Part shown: positions 1-6,865 of the stretch, one piece after another
Layout: the number at the start of each line of letters is the position of its first letter
Position numbering within the stretch: position 1 is the first letter of the stretch
Made by a program: the position numbers and the translations under genes
IMG/VR virus record: IMGVR_UViG_2534682109_000012
Direction: 5' to 3' (one strand)
Source: a virus
Taxonomy: Duplodnaviria > Heunggongvirae > Uroviricota > Caudoviricetes
Length of the DNA stretch: 8,892 nt
The notes under the pieces: model-generated
The model's database searches: none
What the model was told of the DNA's origin: nothing
Seen by the model: the letters and a program-made list of their open reading frames with translations, nothing else

Positions 1-508
1 TTAACCAGTTAACAATTAACGCCGGATACAGAGAATCCCCCCATAACACTGTTTTTGGTTTTAACTGTTCCGCGTGCGCTGAGCCGCATTCACCGCATCA
101 CAAAATTCACTTTTAAAAAAGGGCGGCAGAGCAGTTACGGAGTAAAACTGATACCGCCAAATGTCACCAGAATATTGATAACAGAGGGCGTTGCAGCGGG
201 GTTGTCACTTAAGCGTATGGTCAACCTGACAACCCGGTGTCCTCAACGGGGAAGGAATAACCCCGCCATACTTACCGCCGCGCCATTTCGCGGATTGCCA
301 CAACCGGAAGCGCACGGTCGAATTAAATTTAACGACGGCTCTAAGGGAGAAGGACTTCGCCGTGCACTTTCGTGTTATGCCCTGACTTTTCAGGGATATA
401 TCCTTTCAGTAAACTGTCAGTGCCGGATTCTTATCTGTGTCCGGCGCACGACCACACGTAGCAGCGTGTTGGTCTCCATTTTTAATTCAGCCCTTAATGG
501 AGGATAAA

Positions 509-694
509 ATGCCAAACAAACCATGCCCTGCCTGTAACGCTCTTTCTGGCTTTTTAGAGAAGGGCGGTTATTACATTTTTAACTGTCCAGAACATGTTGA
601 ATTTCATATATCAAAACTTGACAGTATCATTACAAAGCCAAATCAGTATCAGTCTGATTTACTGAATAAAGAGTTAAACGCCGCCCGAGATTAA
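509..694 (+). CDS. Small hypothetical protein (61 aa) with a CxxC...CxxH zinc-ribbon-like motif
   Basis: ATG at 509 preceded by GGAGG (499-503) at 5 nt spacing; ORF runs to TAA at 692-694. Translation MPNKPCPACNALSGFLEKGGYYIFNCPEHVEF... carries CPAC and CPEH pairs about 16 residues apart. The longer track ORF from 437 has no RBS and is probably an over-extension. No family recognised. Confidence 0.5.
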   Translation: MPNKPCPACNALSGFLEKGGYYIFNCPEHVEFHISKLDSIITKPNQYQSDLLNKELNAARD

Positions 695-880
695 GGGCGT
701 AGTGGCCCATTAAAAATATTGCAAAGACCAACTATTGTTGAACTGGATTAAACCAGTAATTCTCTATTGCTCTTATTGTTACCATCGGATGATTGCCGGG
801 GGTTATTTTAAGTTCGGGAGGAAAAGGCTCTCCATCAGCAGCCATCATTGAGTATGTGAAATCCGCCGACGCAGTCCCTT

Positions 881-1270
881 TCATGATAATTCCGAATTTT
901 TCAAGTAATGAGAGCAGTTCCGGTAATCCTGTGTCATCTGAATAACTTTCCTCATAGAAAGAAGCGATTGCCGCAGGAGATGACAGTTCTCGCTCTGCAA
1001 TTTTTTTGTAGTTTTCCAGAATTCTTTTTTTGAATACTTTTCCTCGACATGAAAACCCATCACCGAGGCAATCCGCTTTGCAGTTTCTTCAGTATTCTGG
1101 TTGTTTGTTACCGAAACAGAGTACAATCCGGTAAACGCATCGCGCACATTACGAGCCATATTATCAATGTATTTCTTCGTTGCAGATTCTAATTCAACTT
1201 CGTTCAGACGTTGGTGAAGTGCATGTGCTGCAATTTCCTGGATTTCTTTTAGTAAATCTTTAAATTCCAT
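881..1270 (-). CDS. Hypothetical protein (129 aa), last gene of the leftward early operon
   Basis: ATG (complement of 1268-1270) preceded on the minus strand by GGAG; it starts 11 nt after the stop of the upstream 42-aa gene. Only long ORF in this interval; no family recognised. Confidence 0.55.
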   Translation of the reverse strand: MEFKDLLKEIQEIAAHALHQRLNEVELESATKKYIDNMARNVRDAFTGLYSVSVTNNQNTEETAKRIASVMGFHVEEKYSKKEFWKTTKKLQSENCHLLRQSLLSMRKVIQMTQDYRNCSHYLKNSELS

Positions 1271-1281
1271 CTTTAACTCCG

Positions 1282-1410
1282 TTAGTCGTTAGATTTTGCC
1301 GAACTGGAAAGCGCCTGTTTAAACTCACTGAAGCTGAGAGCTTCCTCGCCTTCGGCAAGGCCTTCGAAGTATTCTTCGTAAGCCTTTTCCATGATTGTGT
1401 CGAAATCCAT
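1282..1410 (-). CDS. Small acidic hypothetical protein (42 aa); size and position resemble Rac-prophage YdaG-type small proteins
   Basis: Hand translation of the minus strand gives MDFDTIMEKAYEEYFEGLAEGEEALSFSEFKQALSSSAKSND. ATG is preceded by AGGTGA at 5 nt and lies 1 nt after the TGA of the upstream 51-aa gene (TGA-t-ATG), a tight coupling that argues for a real gene despite the small size. Not in the ORF track because it is shorter than the track cutoff. Confidence 0.45.
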   Translation of the reverse strand: MDFDTIMEKAYEEYFEGLAEGEEALSFSEFKQALSSSAKSND

Positions 1411-1411
1411 A

Positions 1412-1567
1412 TCACTCACCTGAGTTTCTTTCCAGCCAGCGACGGGCACCATTTTCGGTTTTAAACGTTTTGCTTTTGGTATACGTCATCGCGGTGAATG
1501 TACCGTCCTGGTTGGGAAACACGCCGTACACCAGAGATTCGTTGTTGCCAAGATCGATAGTATCCAT
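1412..1567 (-). CDS. Small hypothetical protein (51 aa); size and position resemble Rac-prophage YdaF-type small proteins
   Basis: Internal ATG (complement of 1565-1567) of track ORF 1412..1606, giving MDTIDLGNNESLVYGVFPNQDGTFTAMTYTKSKTFKTENGARRWLERNSGE; preceded by GAGGT at 4 nt. The track start at 1606 is a TTG without an RBS. Confidence 0.5.
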   Translation of the reverse strand: MDTIDLGNNESLVYGVFPNQDGTFTAMTYTKSKTFKTENGARRWLERNSGE

Positions 1568-1623
1568 GTTGACCTCATTTCCCCTTAACGCCGGGTAGCG
1601 GAACAAAAACCTGCTGCATAGTT

Positions 1624-1652
1624 ATTAAAGTTGAACCCTGCCGTCATGTTCA
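1624..1652 (-). promoter_or_regulatory. Candidate sigma70 promoter for the leftward small-gene operon
   Basis: On the minus strand: -35-like TGAACA (complement of 1647-1652), 17-bp spacer, -10-like TTTAAT (complement of 1624-1629), about 55 nt upstream of the 51-aa gene start. Hexamer matching only; speculative. Confidence 0.2.
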
Positions 1653-1754
1653 TACGCCTCGGGCTGGCTACTTACCCCCTGACCACTGCTTGGTAACTCG
1701 AAGTATTGCCCGGCGTTCTGTGGGGCGGGGTGGGTGGTTGGTGTATGTAATCTA

Positions 1755-1792
1755 CAATTAAAAACTGTTTTTGTGTCAACAGTTTTTAATTG
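1755..1792. promoter_or_regulatory. 38-bp perfect palindrome (15-bp arms CAATTAAAAACTGTT / AACAGTTTTTAATTG, 8-bp spacer); candidate distal operator (OL-like)
   Basis: Read directly: 1755-1769 is the exact reverse complement of 1778-1792. It shares the core AAAAACTGT / ACAGTTTTT with the palindrome at 2791-2825 in the divergent promoter region. On the minus strand the spacer and arm contain a perfect TTGACA (complement of 1774-1779). Confidence 0.5.
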
Positions 1793-1803
1793 TTGTTTTG
1801 GGC

Positions 1804-1826
1804 AAAAAAATCCCTCGAAAGAGGGA
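1804..1826 (-). terminator. Rho-independent terminator for the leftward TA operon
   Basis: TCCCTC-GAAA-GAGGGA hairpin (1811-1826, 6-bp stem, GAAA loop); on the minus strand it is followed by a run of 7 T (complement of the A-run at 1804-1810). It lies 18 nt downstream of the toxin stop codon (1845-1847). Confidence 0.55.
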
Positions 1827-1844
1827 GTATGAAAATTGTTCAAC

Positions 1845-2132
1845 TCAGATAGAGAAGGGAAATTGTCGCCGAGAATGTGTCACGCTTACAATCTCAATGC
1901 TTGAAGCAGCTACTCTGTACAGGATTATGTAGTTAGGGTGGGTCACGATCTCTCTCAATCCAGAAACCCGTTCGCTTGGTGGATATAAGTACGGATGCTC
2001 AGATAGAGGTAATACCGATGTTTCAATGCGTATTTTTAGTCTACGTGCTGCCGGTGGGTTCTCCTTGGCGATGTAAGTTATGATCTGGCGCAAATCATCG
2101 CGAGCAGACGGTAGCCATAAAATGGGTAACAT
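1845..2132 (-). CDS. parE2: ParE/RelE-family type II toxin (95 aa), third gene of the regulator-antitoxin-toxin operon
   Basis: Translation MLPILWLPSARDDLRQIITYIAKENPPAARRL...GLREIVTHPNYIILYRVAASSIEIVSVTHSRRQ has the conserved ParE pattern (N-terminal W..A..DL..I..YI, central GLRE, C-terminal NYIILYRV...IEIV.V.H.RR). Its ATG overlaps the antitoxin TAA by one base (TAATG). Symbol by analogy to the paaR2-paaA2-parE2 operon of E. coli O157:H7 prophages, recalled from memory. Confidence 0.8.
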   Translation of the reverse strand: MLPILWLPSARDDLRQIITYIAKENPPAARRLKIRIETSVLPLSEHPYLYPPSERVSGLREIVTHPNYIILYRVAASSIEIVSVTHSRRQFPFSI

Positions 2133-2323
2133 TACTCGCTCTTGTTAGTTACAGCAATTTGAGCAATAAGATTTTCCATTTCAGCCATTACCTCGTCATG
2201 TGGAATTGCGGGGCGAGTGTCTGCAAGGCTTGACGTTACTTTAGTGCGCAACCATTCGTTGTAACTGTTTTCTTGTTCGGTAGTTTCGAATTCTGAAACT
2301 ATCGGAGAAAGGGCTGTACCCAT
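2132..2323 (-). CDS. paaA2: PaaA2-like antitoxin (63 aa) of the three-component TA module
   Basis: Translation MGTALSPIVSEFETTEQENSYNEWLRTKVTSSLADTRPAIPHDEVMAEMENLIAQ matches my recollection of the PaaA2 antitoxin (63 aa). It sits immediately upstream of and overlapping the ParE gene; GAGGAG lies 7 nt before the ATG. Confidence 0.75.
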   Translation of the reverse strand: MGTALSPIVSEFETTEQENSYNEWLRTKVTSSLADTRPAIPHDEVMAEMENLIAQIAVTNKSE

Positions 2324-2350
2324 GGCATAACTCCTCTTCTTGTACTGTGG

Positions 2351-2752
2351 TCACGCCCGGCGGCTTTTTTGTGCCGCCAGCCACCTAGCAATGGTTTCTT
2401 CCATTGATTTTTTCTTGTCTTTGATTTCTTGAAGCATTTTTTCTTGGTCTTCCTCAGGAAACGCACTAAAAGCTTGGAGCAGTTCGCGTTGGCGAGGACC
2501 AATTTTCATCGTGTCAGGGGTGAAAATTTGCTCACACTCTTCAGGAGGCAATAAAAACCAATGCAATGGATGCCCTGAAACCTCAACCAGTTTATCCAAA
2601 CTTGAGGCTTTAGGTGTAGCCTTACCGCTGACCCATTGTTGAACAGTTTGTTGTGTCACACCAATTCTACGGGCAAGCTCAGCCTGGCTCCATCCAGTTT
2701 CCTGAAGAAGCTTGCTGATTCTGTACATAGATACTTCTAGGGCGCTCATCAT
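2351..2752 (-). CDS. paaR2: HTH (XRE/DicA-like) transcriptional regulator, PaaR2-like; CI-equivalent repressor of the immunity region
   Basis: Helix-turn-helix WSQAELARRIGVTQQTVQQWVSGKATP; the C-terminal LPPEE...RELLQAFSAFPEEDQEKMLQEIK segment resembles the DicA C-terminus, and there is no S24 peptidase domain. It is divergent from the Cro-like gene and first gene of the TA operon. The start is ambiguous (ATG at 2752 or 2749, neither with an SD), possibly leaderless. Confidence 0.8.
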   Translation of the reverse strand: MMSALEVSMYRISKLLQETGWSQAELARRIGVTQQTVQQWVSGKATPKASSLDKLVEVSGHPLHWFLLPPEECEQIFTPDTMKIGPRQRELLQAFSAFPEEDQEKMLQEIKDKKKSMEETIARWLAAQKSRRA

Positions 2753-2760
2753 TATTCAAT

Positions 2761-2766
2761 TTTACA
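2761..2766 (-). promoter_or_regulatory. Candidate -10 element (TAAAAT) for a leaderless regulator transcript
   Basis: On the minus strand TAAAAT lies 8 nt upstream of the regulator ATG and no SD is present, reminiscent of lambda pRM / cI. The -35 is weak. Speculative. Confidence 0.2.
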
Positions 2767-2790
2767 GGTAAATACTGTTAAAAGCATCAC

Positions 2791-2825
2791 AATAAAAAAC
2801 TGTTGATTGCATACAGTTTTTTATT
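2791..2825. promoter_or_regulatory. 35-bp perfect palindrome (13-bp arms AATAAAAAACTGT / ACAGTTTTTTATT, 9-bp spacer); candidate OR-like operator in the divergent promoter region
   Basis: Read directly: 2791-2803 is the reverse complement of 2813-2825. It lies between the divergent regulator and Cro-like genes, and an extra half-site-like AATACTGTTA sits at 2771-2780. Same core as the 1755-1792 palindrome. Confidence 0.5.
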
Positions 2826-2837
2826 GTAGGCTTTGCT

Positions 2838-2856
2838 TATAGTTTTTAGAGGAGGG
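2838..2856 (+). promoter_or_regulatory. Candidate -10 (TATAGT, 2838-2843) and RBS (GGAGGG, 2851-2856) for the rightward Cro-like operon
   Basis: TATAGT is a 5/6 match to TATAAT and GGAGGG lies 4 nt before the ATG at 2861. The -35 region would overlap the right arm of the palindrome. The short distance from -10 to RBS implies a very short leader; uncertain. Confidence 0.3.
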
Positions 2857-2860
2857 CAAA

Positions 2861-3133
2861 ATGCTAGATAGCACTCGCGAAAAAATTAGGCAGAAATACA
2901 CTCAGGCTGAAATAGGTCGTTATATGGGGGTCGCTCAACAGACTGTTTGGCAATGGTTTAGCTTTGGCGTTCCCCCAAAGCAGGTAATTCCGTTATGCCA
3001 ACTAATGAAGTGGGAAGTTACCCCGCATGAAATCCGCCCAGATATTTATCCTAACCCAACCGACGGTTTACCTGTTGGATGTAAGGTTAACACATCAAAT
3101 GCGCCGGAGTTGATTCATGAAAATCAAGCATGA
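2861..3133 (+). CDS. ydaS: Cro-like HTH DNA-binding protein, YdaS family (90 aa)
   Basis: HTH TQAEIGRYMGVAQQTVWQWFSFGVP followed by the EV..HEIRPDIY motif I associate with the YdaS family. It is divergent from the repressor with a strong RBS. Symbol by synteny and family resemblance, from memory. Confidence 0.7.
   Translation: MLDSTREKIRQKYTQAEIGRYMGVAQQTVWQWFSFGVPPKQVIPLCQLMKWEVTPHEIRPDIYPNPTDGLPVGCKVNTSNAPELIHENQA
3110..3127. promoter_or_regulatory. Perfect inverted repeat TTGATT-N6-AATCAA at the ydaS/ydaT junction; candidate YdaT (CII-like) binding site
   Basis: Read directly: TTGATTcatgaaAATCAA. It overlaps the ydaT start codon (3117-3119). I recall that YdaT of prophage CP-933P was reported to recognise a TTGATT-N6-AATCAA repeat; that recollection is unverified. 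Confidence 0.4.
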
Positions 3134-3542
3134 ACACATCCGCATGGCGATGAATGCCTGGGCGCATCCGGACGGCGAAAAAGTACCGGCTGCGAAAATT
3201 ACCAAAGCGTATTTCGAGCTGGGAATGACGTTCCCGGAACTGTATGACGACAGCCATCCGGAAGCCATGGCTCGCAATACTCAGAAAATTTTCCGCTGGG
3301 TGGAGAAAGACACTCCTGATGCGGTTAAAAAAATTCAGGCGTTGTTACCAGCGATCGAAAAAGCGATGCCGCCTCCGCTGGTGGCCCGAATGCGCAGCCA
3401 CAGTTCCGCTTATTTTCGGGAGTTGGTAGAGACGAAGGAACGGCTGGTGAAAGATATTGATGATTTCGTTGCATCAGCGATCGTTCTGTTCGATCAGATG
3501 AATCGTGGTGGCCCGGCAGGAAACACTCTGGCTGTGCATTAA
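3117..3542 (+). CDS. ydaT: YdaT-like protein (141 aa), proposed CII-functional-equivalent / toxic regulator of Rac-type prophages
   Basis: Second gene of the rightward operon; it overlaps the ydaS 3' end by 17 nt, with GGAG 8 nt upstream of the ATG. Length and position match YdaT of Rac/CP-933P; sequence family recognised from memory only. Confidence 0.7.
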   Translation: MKIKHEHIRMAMNAWAHPDGEKVPAAKITKAYFELGMTFPELYDDSHPEAMARNTQKIFRWVEKDTPDAVKKIQALLPAIEKAMPPPLVARMRSHSSAYFRELVETKERLVKDIDDFVASAIVLFDQMNRGGPAGNTLAVH

Positions 3543-3555
3543 TTGGGTAATAAAT

Positions 3556-4065
3556 ATGAGTAATGACAAAAAATTGACACTGAGCGTTTACGAAAACAGT
3601 CCGCACATCTGGCGTGGCGGTTTATCTGATGTGGAGCTGGCAGAGTGGTTGATACATAAAGCTAATGCGCTGCTCTGGCGTTTGTCAGCCAGAGAACAGC
3701 GCAAGGAAACCAGAATAAAGCTGGCTGATGCAGAAGCGTGTGCCGGGCTTATTGAGGATTATACAAATCTTGGTATTTCTTCAGCAGAGAGTGATCCCAT
3801 TCAGCCTCTGAGCAGGGAGTCAATCCAGCACGCTGGTTGTATGGCACATCTTGTAACTGCTCGTCAACATGAGGTGGGTATTGGATCACTTCCGGCGGGA
3901 TATTCGCTGATTCCAGAGCTGGTTGAAGCAAGAAAATCAGTTCAGAAAAAGAGAGATGACGCACTTCAATTATTGAGAGAGCACTATGGCGCGATACCAG
4001 AATGCGAACAGCGTCGATACCCTGAAGGTTATGAATGGATGCAGTCTCTTTTTGAAGTTCGCTAA
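3556..4065 (+). CDS. Hypothetical protein (169 aa), unknown function
   Basis: Internal ATG of track ORF 3505..4065, chosen because it starts 13 nt after the ydaT stop (the track start would overlap ydaT). The translation is protein-like (MSNDKKLTLSVYENSPHIWRGGLSDVELAEWLIHKANALLWRL...). No family recognised; weak SD. Confidence 0.5.
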   Translation: MSNDKKLTLSVYENSPHIWRGGLSDVELAEWLIHKANALLWRLSAREQRKETRIKLADAEACAGLIEDYTNLGISSAESDPIQPLSRESIQHAGCMAHLVTARQHEVGIGSLPAGYSLIPELVEARKSVQKKRDDALQLLREHYGAIPECEQRRYPEGYEWMQSLFEVR

Positions 4066-4282
4066 TCAATATGTCGAGACGAAGGTATGTTTCGGCGCGC
4101 AGCCAGGCTCTGTAATCCGGGAGCATTTCGGGGCTGTTACACCAGCGGTTTGTTGCTGCAACATTTAATACATGAGCCTGATAAAGGCTTTTCAAAAAAT
4201 ACATGTCGAACCTCCTCTGGTTCTGTCGATTGGGAACCACAGATTATATCCGGAGGAAGGTTCGGCACCAGATGAGGTAGCC

Positions 4283-5374
4283 ATGCGTGATTACGCAAAA
4301 GTTTCTCCGCGATTCTGGCTGGGAGAAACGGGGAGAGAACTTAGAAAGGCGGGTGCAGAAGCGCAAGTTGTTGCTTTTTACCTGATGACATCCCCTCACG
4401 CAAATATGCTGGGTTTGTATTACCTGCCAGTTTTATACCTTGCTCATGAAACCGGGCTTGGTCTGGAAGGGGCTTCAAAGGGGCTTAAAAGGGCTGTTGA
4501 AGCTGGTTTTTGTAGCTATGACCATGATGCAGAGATGGTCTGGGTCCATGAAATGGCAGCCTGGCAGGTTGGGGAAACGTTGAAGCCTGGCGATAACCGT
4601 TGTGCAGGTGTCAGGAATGAGTATGCATCATTACCTGAAAACGCTTTTCTGTCAGTGTTTTACGACAGATATAAAACGGATTTCCATCTGGATGTGAGGC
4701 GGAATAATAGCCGAAATTCGGTAAGGGGCTTCGAAGGGGCTTTTAAGGGGCTTCGAAGCCAAGAACAGGAACAGGAGCAGGAGAAAGAACAGGAACAGGA
4801 CAAAAACACTATGGTTCATGGCAAAAAAAACACCACGAACCAGGCAGGGGATGTTCAGACCGTCAATCCTGGTCAGCCAGCAGGCACGACACCGGAAGCC
4901 GATTCGGGCGCTGTGCAGCAGGTGATGACCGCAGGGTCGGAGCAATCACACCAACTGCAGCAGCCTGAAGCCGATTCCGCCATTCAGCGGGAAGCCGATC
5001 GGGTAGTCCCGGAAAGCACCGGGCAGTCTGTGGGACGAGTGGATTATCCGGATGTGTTCGAACAGGTCTGGCGGGAATACCCGTTGCGTGCTGGGGCAAA
5101 CCCGAAGAAATCCGCTTTCAGTGCCTGGAAGGCCAGATTGCGCGAGGGGGTGCCACCAGAGACCATGCTGGATGGTGTGAGGCGTTACGCGAGATACCTG
5201 GCGGCGACCGGGAAAGCGGGAACGGAATTTGTTCAGCGAGCGACGACGTTTTTTGGGCCGGACCGGAATTTTGAAAACCCCTGGTTGCTCCCGGTAAGCG
5301 GCACGAACAACCAGCGTTGTGTGAATCATATTTCTGAACCGGATACCGAAATTCCGCCGGGATTCAGGGGGTGA
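4283..5374 (+). CDS. Phage replication initiator / replisome-organiser-like protein (363 aa from this start)
   Basis: ATG at 4283 preceded by GAGGT at 4 nt (the track start at 4172 has no RBS but cannot be excluded). The C-terminal segment FEQVWREYPLRAGANPKKSAFSAWKARL...G resembles the F..FW..YP.K..K..A...W motif of phage replisome-organiser domains. It lies directly upstream of the DnaC-like gene, contains internal iteron-like DNA repeats, and its stop overlaps the dnaC-like RBS region. Confidence 0.65.
   Translation: MRDYAKVSPRFWLGETGRELRKAGAEAQVVAFYLMTSPHANMLGLYYLPVLYLAHETGLGLEGASKGLKRAVEAGFCSYDHDAEMVWVHEMAAWQVGETLKPGDNRCAGVRNEYASLPENAFLSVFYDRYKTDFHLDVRRNNSRNSVRGFEGAFKGLRSQEQEQEQEKEQEQDKNTMVHGKKNTTNQAGDVQTVNPGQPAGTTPEADSGAVQQVMTAGSEQSHQLQQPEADSAIQREADRVVPESTGQSVGRVDYPDVFEQVWREYPLRAGANPKKSAFSAWKARLREGVPPETMLDGVRRYARYLAATGKAGTEFVQRATTFFGPDRNFENPWLLPVSGTNNQRCVNHISEPDTEIPPGFRG
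4467..4496. repeat. Cluster A of 11-bp-phased direct repeats AAGGGGCTT (2 perfect copies plus 1 degenerate)
   Basis: Copies at 4467-4475 and 4478-4486, with a degenerate AAGGGCTG at 4489-4496; the spacing is exactly 11 bp. Lies inside the initiator gene (peptide EGASKGLKRAVEAGF). Confidence 0.6.
4723..4760. repeat. Cluster B of 11-bp-phased direct repeats AAGGGGCTT (3 perfect copies) ending in the palindrome GGCTTCGAAGCC
   Basis: Copies at 4723-4731, 4734-4742 and 4745-4753, 11 bp apart; the palindrome GGCTTCGAAGCC is at 4749-4760. Cluster B is 256 bp downstream of cluster A and inside the initiator gene (peptide RGFEGAFKGLRSQ). Candidate ori iterons. Confidence 0.6.
4763..4801 (+). repeat. 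GAACAG/GAGCAG hexanucleotide tandem repeat encoding an EQEQEQEKEQEQD acidic linker
   Basis: Read directly: GAA CAG GAA CAG GAG CAG GAG AAA GAA CAG GAA CAG GAC, in frame with the initiator gene and immediately after repeat cluster B; followed by an A-rich stretch. Confidence 0.7.
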
Positions 5375-5380
5375 TGTGGC

Positions 5381-6127
5381 ATGAAAAACATTGCGGCAGC
5401 CGGGGTTCTTGAACGTATTCGCAGACTTGCACCACAGGCGTCGGTTCCACCGTACCGGACGGTGGAGGAGTGGCGGGAATGGCAACTTGCTGAAGGACGA
5501 AAACGCAGCGAGGAGATTAACCGCCAGAATCACCAGTTGCGGGTGGAAAAAATCCTGAATCGTTCGGGCATCCAGCCTCTGCACAGCAAATGCTCGTTTG
5601 CGAATTATCAGGTGCAGAACGACGGGCAAAAATACGCGCTGAGCCAGGCCAAATCCATAGCTGACGAACTGATGACCGGGTGCACGAATTTTGTGTTCAG
5701 CGGTAAAACCGGCACCGGGAAAAATCACCTTGCAGCGGCGATGGGTAACCGGCTGATGGCGAAGGGGCGCAGCGTGATTATCGTCACCGTGTCTGATGTC
5801 ATGAGCGTGTTGCATGACAGCTACGACAACGGCAAATCCGGGGAAAAATTTTTACAGGAGCTTTGCAGTGTTGATTTGCTGGTCCTGGATGAAATAGGCG
5901 TTCAGCGGGAGACGAAAAACGAGCAGGTGGTATTACACCAGATAATTGATCGCCGGACAGCATCACTGTGCAGTGTCGGGATGTTAACAAACCTGAATCA
6001 TGCCGCAATGAGTACACTTCTTGGTGAGAGGATTATGGACCGCATGACCATGAACGGTGGTCGATGGGTGACGTTTAACTGGGATAGCTGGCGTCCAAAT
6101 GTCAGCAATATGAGGGTTGTGAAGTAA
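5381..6127 (+). CDS. DnaC-like replicative helicase loader (AAA+ ATPase, 248 aa)
   Basis: Walker A FSGKTGTGKNHLAAAMG and Walker B DLLVLDEIGVQ; long collinear similarity to E. coli DnaC as I recall it (SGKPGTGKNHLAAAI...VDLLVIDEIGVQ...MLTNSN...LGERVMDRM...FNWDSYR). Same length and position as YdaV of Rac. Confidence 0.9.
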   Translation: MKNIAAAGVLERIRRLAPQASVPPYRTVEEWREWQLAEGRKRSEEINRQNHQLRVEKILNRSGIQPLHSKCSFANYQVQNDGQKYALSQAKSIADELMTGCTNFVFSGKTGTGKNHLAAAMGNRLMAKGRSVIIVTVSDVMSVLHDSYDNGKSGEKFLQELCSVDLLVLDEIGVQRETKNEQVVLHQIIDRRTASLCSVGMLTNLNHAAMSTLLGERIMDRMTMNGGRWVTFNWDSWRPNVSNMRVVK

Positions 6128-6148
6128 TTTTGTCCGGAGGAAATTTTA

Positions 6149-6865
6149 ATGGAAACCGTATCTGACGCACTGAAAGCACTGAAAAAAGCCTCTTCACATG
6201 TGGTGGCAGCTCGCCTTGGAATTAGTCGTGAAGAGGCTGTCAACGAACTGTGGAAACTGAAACGCCGTGGAGAAGCGGATAACAAGGGGGCGATATGGTG
6301 GCTGACTCAGGCTGGTGAAAGTGAACCGGTGTCACCGGTACCGAAAGTGACGGCGCAAATGCTGACAGAGGCGATTGAACAACATGGCCCACAAACGGCG
6401 GATGAACTGGCATTGATGTTCGGAATTACCTCCCGCCGGGCGAATTCATCGCTGGCAATGGCAATCAGCAAAGGGTGTCTGATTCGCGTGAATCAGGATG
6501 GTAAATTTCGTTACTGCATACCGGGCGTTGATTTACCGGCAGAGCCGAAAGCAGCATCCGTAGCTGAAACGGAGGGTAAAGCCCTTCCTCAGCCAGCTGG
6601 TGTTGCGTTACCAGTCCAGGAAACGGCTGCACAGGAAGAAATTAAAACAGAAGCGGTGGAGGACATTGTGAAGTTGCAGCAATCGTTCACTGAAGCGAAA
6701 GCAGATGACCTGATTCTACCATCGCTGCATGTGGCTAACCGCGAGCTGCGCCGGGCGAAAAGTAATGTTCAGAAGTGGGAGCGAGTCTGTGCTGCGCTAC
6801 GGGAACTGAACAAACACAGGGATATTCTCCGGGATATTACCGCCACCAGAGAGCAGCAGCGGTGA
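6149..6865 (+). CDS. Hypothetical protein (238 aa) with two N-terminal winged-helix-like segments and a C-terminal charged helical region
   Basis: ATG at 6149 with GGAGG 8 nt upstream. Two similar segments ([25 protein letters not shown] and [37 protein letters not shown]) look like winged-helix DNA-binding motifs. Occupies the position of ydaW-type genes after the DnaC-like gene. Confidence 0.65.

Follow-up and report, generated by a model that had tools for sequence, protein, structure and literature searches.

The window, by which we mean the whole 8,892-nucleotide stretch analysed here (IMG/VR virus record IMGVR_UViG_2534682109_000012), contains a prophage immunity region (Table 1). Positions 1-6262 align with prophage Sp4 of E. 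coli O157:H7 Sakai at 99.6% identity, and we take Sp4 to be the prophage also named CP-933M. The identity to Sakai Sp4 ends at 6262 within a DUF1627 gene, at what looks like a mosaic breakpoint. The paaR-like gene is annotated in Sp4 as a 'phage repressor protein' (ECs_1069), and the Sp4 counterparts of ydaS and ydaT are ECs_1070 and ECs_1071, respectively. CP-933M is reported to bear a homologue of paaR2-paaA2-parE2 (Jurenas et al. 2021, PMC8630535).

The 141-aa product of ydaT scored 38.9 bits against the Pfam family YdaT_toxin (PF06254; cut-off 21) and matched PDB entries 3c4r and 8bt1 with E-values of about 1e-83, the PDB entries being 86-90% identical to it. Pfam gave YdaT_toxin alone for this protein, and homology to lambda CII was not seen. 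Published work also describes YdaT as having no detectable similarity to lambda CII (PMC9986795). A type II toxin-antitoxin pair of ydaS and ydaT with an autoregulatory operator is suggested by the Pfam name only, and the palindrome described below is not at the operon promoter. A toxin-antitoxin role of CP-933P YdaS and YdaT is rejected in published work (PMC8630535, PMC9986795).

Several other elements were noted in the window. Positions 121-172 of the minus strand hold a full-length DicF antisense sRNA, which scores 76.9 bits with Rfam RF00039 (gathering score, 48); its presence fits the dicB/kil-side region of a lambdoid prophage. In the paaR-ydaS intergenic region, at 2789-2827, two 15-bp arms (ACAATAAAAAACTGT / ACAGTTTTTTATTGT) form a perfect inverted repeat around a 9-nt spacer. 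This repeat is probably a PaaR/YdaS operator or the PR/PRM region, and a lone TTGATT half-site is found at the junction of its left arm and spacer (2803-2808). Long ORFs on opposite strands overlap within 3505-4240. One of them (3556-4065, plus strand, 169 aa) gave no match in a Pfam search, and the other (3749-4240, minus strand) carries the RefSeq annotation 'ECs1072 family phage-associated protein'. An O-like replication protein encoded at 4172-5374 on the plus strand contains the low-complexity stretch QEQEQEQEKEQEQ and had no Pfam match.

Table 1. Features of the window around the ydaS-ydaT junction, with the predicted promoter elements
Feature	Position	Strand	Remarks
ParE toxin	1845-2132	-	PF05016 ParE_toxin; downstream of paaR, co-oriented
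paaA-like antitoxin	2132-2323	-	PF21217 PaaA2; downstream of paaR, co-oriented
paaR-like HTH repressor (lambda CI analogue)	2351-2752	-	HTH_3 and Phage_CI_repr Pfam matches
ydaS-like (Cro analogue), 90 aa	2861-3133	+	YdaS_toxin PF15943, E = 8e-10
Predicted leftward transcription start, about 3077	3075-3079	-	predicted from the -10 position
Predicted extended -10 TGT-TAACCT, TGTTAACCT	3084-3092	-	predicted from the conserved offset
Equivalent of the published 30-bp OM duplex TCATGCTTGATTTTCATGAATCAACTCCAT	3104-3133	-	28/30 identical; window reads ...CTCCGG
GGAG Shine-Dalgarno of ydaT	3106-3109	+	7 nt before ATG, abuts the box directly
YdaT box (OM core), TTGATT-N6-AATCAA inverted repeat	3110-3127	.	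ydaT ATG in spacer
ydaT, 141-aa YdaT-family (lambda CII analogue) transcription activator	3117-3542	+	PF06254, E = 1.2e-9
Equivalent of the CP-933P weak site OL, within ydaT	3146-3171	-	25/26 identical
DnaC/IstB-like ATPase	5381-6127		Pfam

A YdaT box at the ydaS-ydaT junction

The palindrome TTGATTcatgaaAATCAA reads TTGATT CATGAA AATCAA. The window letters and a repeat finder bear out the initial annotation, which had described a perfect repeat located exactly at the ydaS-ydaT junction and overlapping the ydaT start codon: the arms (3110-3115 and 3122-3127) are 100% complementary and 6 nt apart, the ydaT ATG (3117-3119) falls within the spacer, and ydaS ends at 3133, overlapping ydaT by 17 nt. 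The last eight codons of ydaS cross the box and read ...ELIHENQA-stop. Perfect 6-N6-6 inverted repeats of any sequence are not rare, with 3 in the window against 2.0 +/- 1.4 in shuffled sequences. The significance of this palindrome derives from its match to a motif that was fixed beforehand, for which 6.6e-4 exact occurrences are expected in the window. The published form 5'-(T/A)TGATT-N6-AATCAA-3' is matched at 12/12 positions at 3110-3127, which is the sole exact match in the window.

In CP-933P, PaaR2, YdaS and YdaT behave like lambda CI, Cro and CII, and the otherwise silent leftward promoter PRE933P is turned on by YdaT in a PRE933P-gfp reporter (Jurenas et al. 2021, PMC8630535). The structure of CP-933P YdaT (PDB 8bt1) is a tetramer of POU-like HTH domains. 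Its DNase I footprint is a 25-bp zone with 5'-TTGATT-N6-AATCAA-3', named OM, at the ydaS/ydaT border; binding was also measured by ITC (Kd about 0.2-0.9 uM) and native MS, OM is flanked by the weak sites OL and OR, and it is said to cover an alternative start (Prolic-Kalinsek et al. 2023, PMC9986795). The initial annotation was thus right about the binding of CP-933P YdaT to this repeat, and the palindrome is an already published YdaT binding site rather than a discovery. A comparison with the published operator, also proposed there, returned the same 18 bp within the 30-bp OM duplex (28/30).

The Rac prophage of E. coli K-12 has the box ATGATTCATGAAAATCAA, which differs from that of the window at one base and also holds the ydaT ATG in its spacer (Wons et al. 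2025, PMC11879457). Mutation of this box abolishes the 29-fold activation of leftward transcription and racR expression, and the expression of a ydaT reporter 'did not change much' between the wild-type and the mutated box (PMC11879457). In the same study, the Rac and CP-933P YdaT proteins cross-activate, further targets bound by Rac YdaT are the host rcsA promoter and the region between racR and ydaS, and the activation is assigned to PracR4, about 190 bp from the box (Wons et al. 2025). Rac YdaT is only about 32% identical to the window protein. The location of the box in coding sequence and over the ydaT start was correctly described by the initial annotation, but such an overlap is not unusual for this operator: it is already published as well, and is the published norm in enteric YdaT loci.

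We compared the window with the tested CP-933P (Sakai Sp12) system. The published OM, OL and OR oligonucleotides are written on the bottom strand, and OM was accordingly compared with the window from 3133 to 3104. The 18-bp box is identical and occupies the same position at the ydaS/ydaT junction, and the neighbourhood is the same, with paaR-paaA-parE leftward, followed by ydaS-ydaT and replication genes rightward. On the other hand, the window prophage is Sp4, and weak site OR has no equivalent in the window (best match 13/26), because the 3' end of the window ydaS is unrelated to that of CP-933P ydaS. The window is a sister immunity region of the CP-933P (Sp12) locus. The window YdaT and the CP-933P protein of the crystal structure share 86% identity, and residues 1-60 differ at two positions. 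The only substitutions in the recognition helix (residues 50-63) are L51M, L62V and D63E, the DNA-contacting R53 and R60 and the invariant W61 being retained. We also found a CP-933P-type locus (L022) that encodes the crystallised YdaT with 100% identity and a PaaR2 starting with MQKKE; its sequence and that of the window are the same over the box, the 4 nt preceding it and about 45 nt following it. Judged by its letters, the window site agrees with the published YdaT box in every respect by which that box is defined at the sequence level.

Conservation of the box and of a -10 hexamer at a fixed distance

We gathered about 260 related loci by tblastn against phage genomes, from E. coli genomes and from IMG/VR. 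The family search used three sub-alignments. Two of the three IMG/VR scans used patterns with MKIKHEH, and so are biased to the right arm, while the third used internal patterns and is unbiased; a scan of genome contigs, which yielded 9 loci, used narrow patterns including MKIKHEH. A box matching at 10/12 positions or better is found in 256 of 258 loci. In 176 related loci, 7 nt separate the start of the box from the ATG, and this is the spacing of enteric and Actinobacillus members. Stenotrophomonas-type phages and Pectobacterium ZF40, whose proteins are about 25-32% identical and were scanned for without N-terminal patterns, carry CTGATT-N6-AATCA(A/G) in the intergenic region between cro and cII, 36-55 nt ahead of the start, so that the MKIK codons do not account for the conservation of the box. 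Unrelated upstream genes read its left arm in different frames (...ELIHENQA-stop in the window and ...DGVDS-stop in CP-933P), indicating that conservation acts on the DNA. The 'cII' proteins of HK639, mEp237 and ZF40 are also members of the YdaT family, and in HK639 and mEp237 a weaker box is found 48 nt into the gene as annotated. In these two (L016, HK639, 1105-1650; L264, mEp237, 1120-1659), cII is longer at its N-terminus by about 27 aa than other members of the family, and the box-like site is inside this extension; either the annotated start is wrong or, as in lambda, the 5' coding region holds the site.

The box also coincides with a joint between modules. The 35 bp comprising the box and the first eight ydaT codons (window 3106-3140) are 100% identical to those of a Rac-like locus (L001, 1501-1535), although the rest of its YdaT protein is just 32% identical to that of the window. 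This Rac-type locus and a locus with a CP-933-type ydaT (L004) have their left flank in common, and homology blocks in many E. coli genomes start at window positions 3106-3112. We regard the box as a module or mosaic joint, and the joint is better seen as a consequence of conservation than as the function. A variant was noted in E. coli Z1323CEC0004 (L020, 2312-2329), where paaR and ydaS equal those of the window as far as about 3066. Next comes the gene of a divergent YdaT-family protein of 173 aa, with the variant palindrome GTGAAC-N6-AATCAC (GGTGA-N10-TCACC) at the same place, 7 nt before the ATG, and TACACT at offset 20. From its sequence, this locus may be an altered-specificity variant.

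With the box as the anchor of the alignment, we looked for hexamers on the strand that does not encode ydaT. A TAnnnT hexamer starting 20-22 nt after the end of the box is present in 255 of 256 loci, against a background in the same flanks of 1.25% per offset. The flanks form 28 clusters, which were reduced to 10 groups without detectable similarity (threshold, 99th percentile of shuffled controls); TAnnnT is present in all 10 groups, and also in HK639, mEp237 and L020. TGn stands in front of 16 of the 19 hexamers with at most 3/6 matches to TATAAT, and of only 1 of the 11 with at least 4/6 (Fisher p = 9e-5). Genuine extended -10 promoters should show such compensation of weak hexamers. In the window, the hexamer TAACCT (3089 to 3084) begins 20 nt after the end of the box and has 3/6 matches to TATAAT; this predicted -10 is carried by the 3' end of ydaS on the opposite strand. 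CP-933P has the candidate TACAAT at offset 21, compared with TGnTAACCT at offset 20 in the window. If transcription started near 3077, about 7 nt beyond the -10, the centre of the box (3118.5) would lie at about -41.5, a position typical of class II activators; across the family, offsets of 20-22 would give centres from -41.5 to -43.5 on the same assumption.

A consensus sigma-70 promoter scan of 2700-3300 found nothing. This is expected, because the promoter would be activator-dependent, and it adds no positive support. Terminator-like sites were also absent from the scan of 2700-3300. A mapped start of the YdaT-dependent transcript was found neither in PMC11879457 nor in the available parts of PMC8630535 and PMC9986795. 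The predicted geometry agrees with the layout of the CP-933P reporter. From its primers, the PRE933P-gfp fragment is 120 bp long (L022, 1421-1540), with the box 18 bp from the upstream end and 84 bp downstream of the box, and the activated promoter must therefore be box-proximal. The CP-933P candidate TACAAT falls within weak site OR, so that YdaT at a high level could also occlude this putative -10. In a Rac K-12-type locus (L007), TATGAT (5/6) is found 20 nt from the box, while the PracR4 hexamers TTGACG and TACGCT lie 189-221 nt to the left of the box and are spaced by 21 nt, where 16-19 nt is usual. On this comparison, the Rac promoter activated by YdaT may be the proximal one and not PracR4.

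Other sites of the window resemble the box. At 6479-6496, within the DUF1627 gene, CTGATTCGCGTGAATCAG has a perfect TGATT-N6-AATCA core and is a perfect palindrome; a -10-like hexamer at 20-22 nt is absent on both of its sides. At 4052-4069, TTGAAGTTCGCTAATCAA is box-like (10/12), with TAACCT 20 nt to the left on the minus strand. As a second YdaT box, this latter site was rejected as probably due to chance: the sole diverged homologue has AACCCT, and the hexamer is lost.

Interpretation of the box as an activator site

We consider it very probable that the box is the high-affinity OM operator of the YdaT encoded downstream of it, through which YdaT activates a leftward PRE-type promoter directed to the repressor and toxin-antitoxin genes. 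The support is divided: binding and box-dependent activation come from the homologues, while the window contributes the same site, a near-identical protein and a -10 at the fixed distance. YdaT would act as the lambda-CII analogue of an Sp4/CP-933M-type lambdoid prophage. A YdaT tetramer is predicted to bind the box via two of its POU-like HTH domains and, centred about 41.5 bp upstream of a start near 3077, to recruit RNA polymerase to an otherwise silent PRE-type promoter with no usable -35 and the candidate extended -10 TGTTAACCT. Such activation would be of the class II type, with YdaT overlapping the missing -35. We infer the exact -10 of the window, its start and the class II contact mechanism from the family comparison. 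The leftward transcript would run antisense through ydaS, the cro analogue, into paaR-paaA-parE, with the paaR-like gene as the first gene it is predicted to meet. The levels of the CI-like repressor and of the toxin-antitoxin pair would thereby be raised, and the switch moved toward a repressed, lysogen-like state.

This arrangement has the logic of lambda CII and pRE. In both systems the analogue of an unstable activator is encoded after cro, its site lies at the cro-cII junction, and a silent leftward promoter, here a predicted one, is antisense through cro into the repressor gene. The gene order paaR (minus), ydaS (plus) and ydaT (plus), together with the orientation of the conserved -10, fits the lambda pRE arrangement, and the overlap of the box with the start codon parallels that of pRE at the cro-cII junction. 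The DNA sites are different. The lambda CII site is a direct repeat, TTGC-N6-TTGC, whereas the YdaT site, which a tetramer with 222 symmetry reads, is an inverted repeat. The lambda CII repeats straddle the -35 hexamer, in contrast to the YdaT box with its predicted centre at about -41.5. The window site would work like lambda CII/pRE, yet it is not a member of that system. Class II sigma-70 promoters, such as those with CRP or FNR sites centred at -41.5, offer a parallel to the predicted layout: a dimeric palindrome would cover the -35 region, its spacing from the putative -10 is constant, the -35 matches poorly, and a weak -10 is offset by TGn. The YdaT geometry is predicted from sequence comparison, and the YdaT tetramer differs in having a second, free DNA-binding face.

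We weighed other explanations for the box. By occupying the ribosome-binding site and start of its own gene, YdaT could act as a roadblock and exert negative feedback on the rightward ydaS-ydaT operon. An autoregulatory operator of this kind would suit a box that lies within the operon and over the ydaT start, and CP-933P YdaT at high concentration does protect about 95 nt around the box (PMC9986795); collision of leftward PRE-type with rightward transcription would also have an indirect negative effect. We nevertheless judge it improbable, since Rac ydaT expression is little altered by the box mutation and the published phenotype is activation (PMC8630535, PMC11879457). A roadblock would also leave unexplained the oriented, family-wide -10 at a fixed distance, and in distant relatives the box is intergenic, off the start codon. 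The initial annotation had offered 'an autoregulatory or switch site'. Its second half is supported, in that YdaT activates a leftward PRE-type promoter in the homologues, and its first half is not supported, given the small effect of the Rac box on ydaT.

There is very little to recommend an RNA element, in which the arms would pair in the ydaS-ydaT mRNA and present the AUG in a hairpin loop, tuning translation or coupling. The arms are able to form a 6-bp stem with the AUG in its loop, but this stem consists of five A-U pairs and one G-C pair, and the predicted fold of 3095-3145 leaves the box arms unused. The stability of this segment is not above that of shuffled sequences (z = -1.5; 20 of 200 shuffles fold at least as well), the common variants ATGATT...AATCAA and TTGATT...AATCAG break the outer pair, and Rfam gave no family match at the box, which in the distant homologues is 36-55 nt upstream of the start. 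It is also highly improbable that the palindrome has no dedicated function, being either a product of chance under the M-K-I-K coding constraint or a recombination sequence at a module boundary. Generic 6-N6-6 palindromes do occur at chance frequency, the right arm encodes the conserved K-I-K, the E. coli homology blocks begin at 3106-3112, and L001 and L004 meet at the mosaic joint. Against this, only 6.6e-4 occurrences of the specific motif are expected, its left arm is kept in different frames of unrelated genes, the box is retained in the non-coding DNA of distant relatives, and direct binding and mutational data exist for the homologues (PMC9986795, PMC11879457).

Implications for YdaT-family prophages

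With the box read as the site from which YdaT activates leftward transcription, a wider generalization can be proposed, toward which we lean with some reservation. Rather than a free-standing operator, the box may supply the upstream half of a composite promoter whose geometry is fixed across the whole YdaT/CII-like family, with its centre at about -41.5, no -35, and a TAnnnT hexamer accompanied by TG if it is weak. The family spans E. coli cryptic prophages, Klebsiella, Actinobacillus, Pectobacterium ZF40, Stenotrophomonas phages, HK639 and mEp237. If this is true, the Rac promoter used by YdaT would be box-proximal (TATGAT, 20 nt) instead of PracR4, about 190 bp away, and CP-933P transcription would start about 34 nt beyond OM and not inside it.

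What is new here is comparative, namely the fixed spacing of box and -10, which offers a modest refinement in the form of a precise and testable promoter model for the CII analogues of this large, little-studied family. The model also predicts cross-talk between co-resident prophages with the same box. Since Sp4 and Sp12 in O157:H7 carry identical boxes, we infer that their YdaT proteins should cross-activate the repressor and toxin-antitoxin operons of both. In the window, the box would link the immunity switch of an O157:H7-type cryptic prophage to the expression of its repressor and of a ParE toxin-antitoxin pair.
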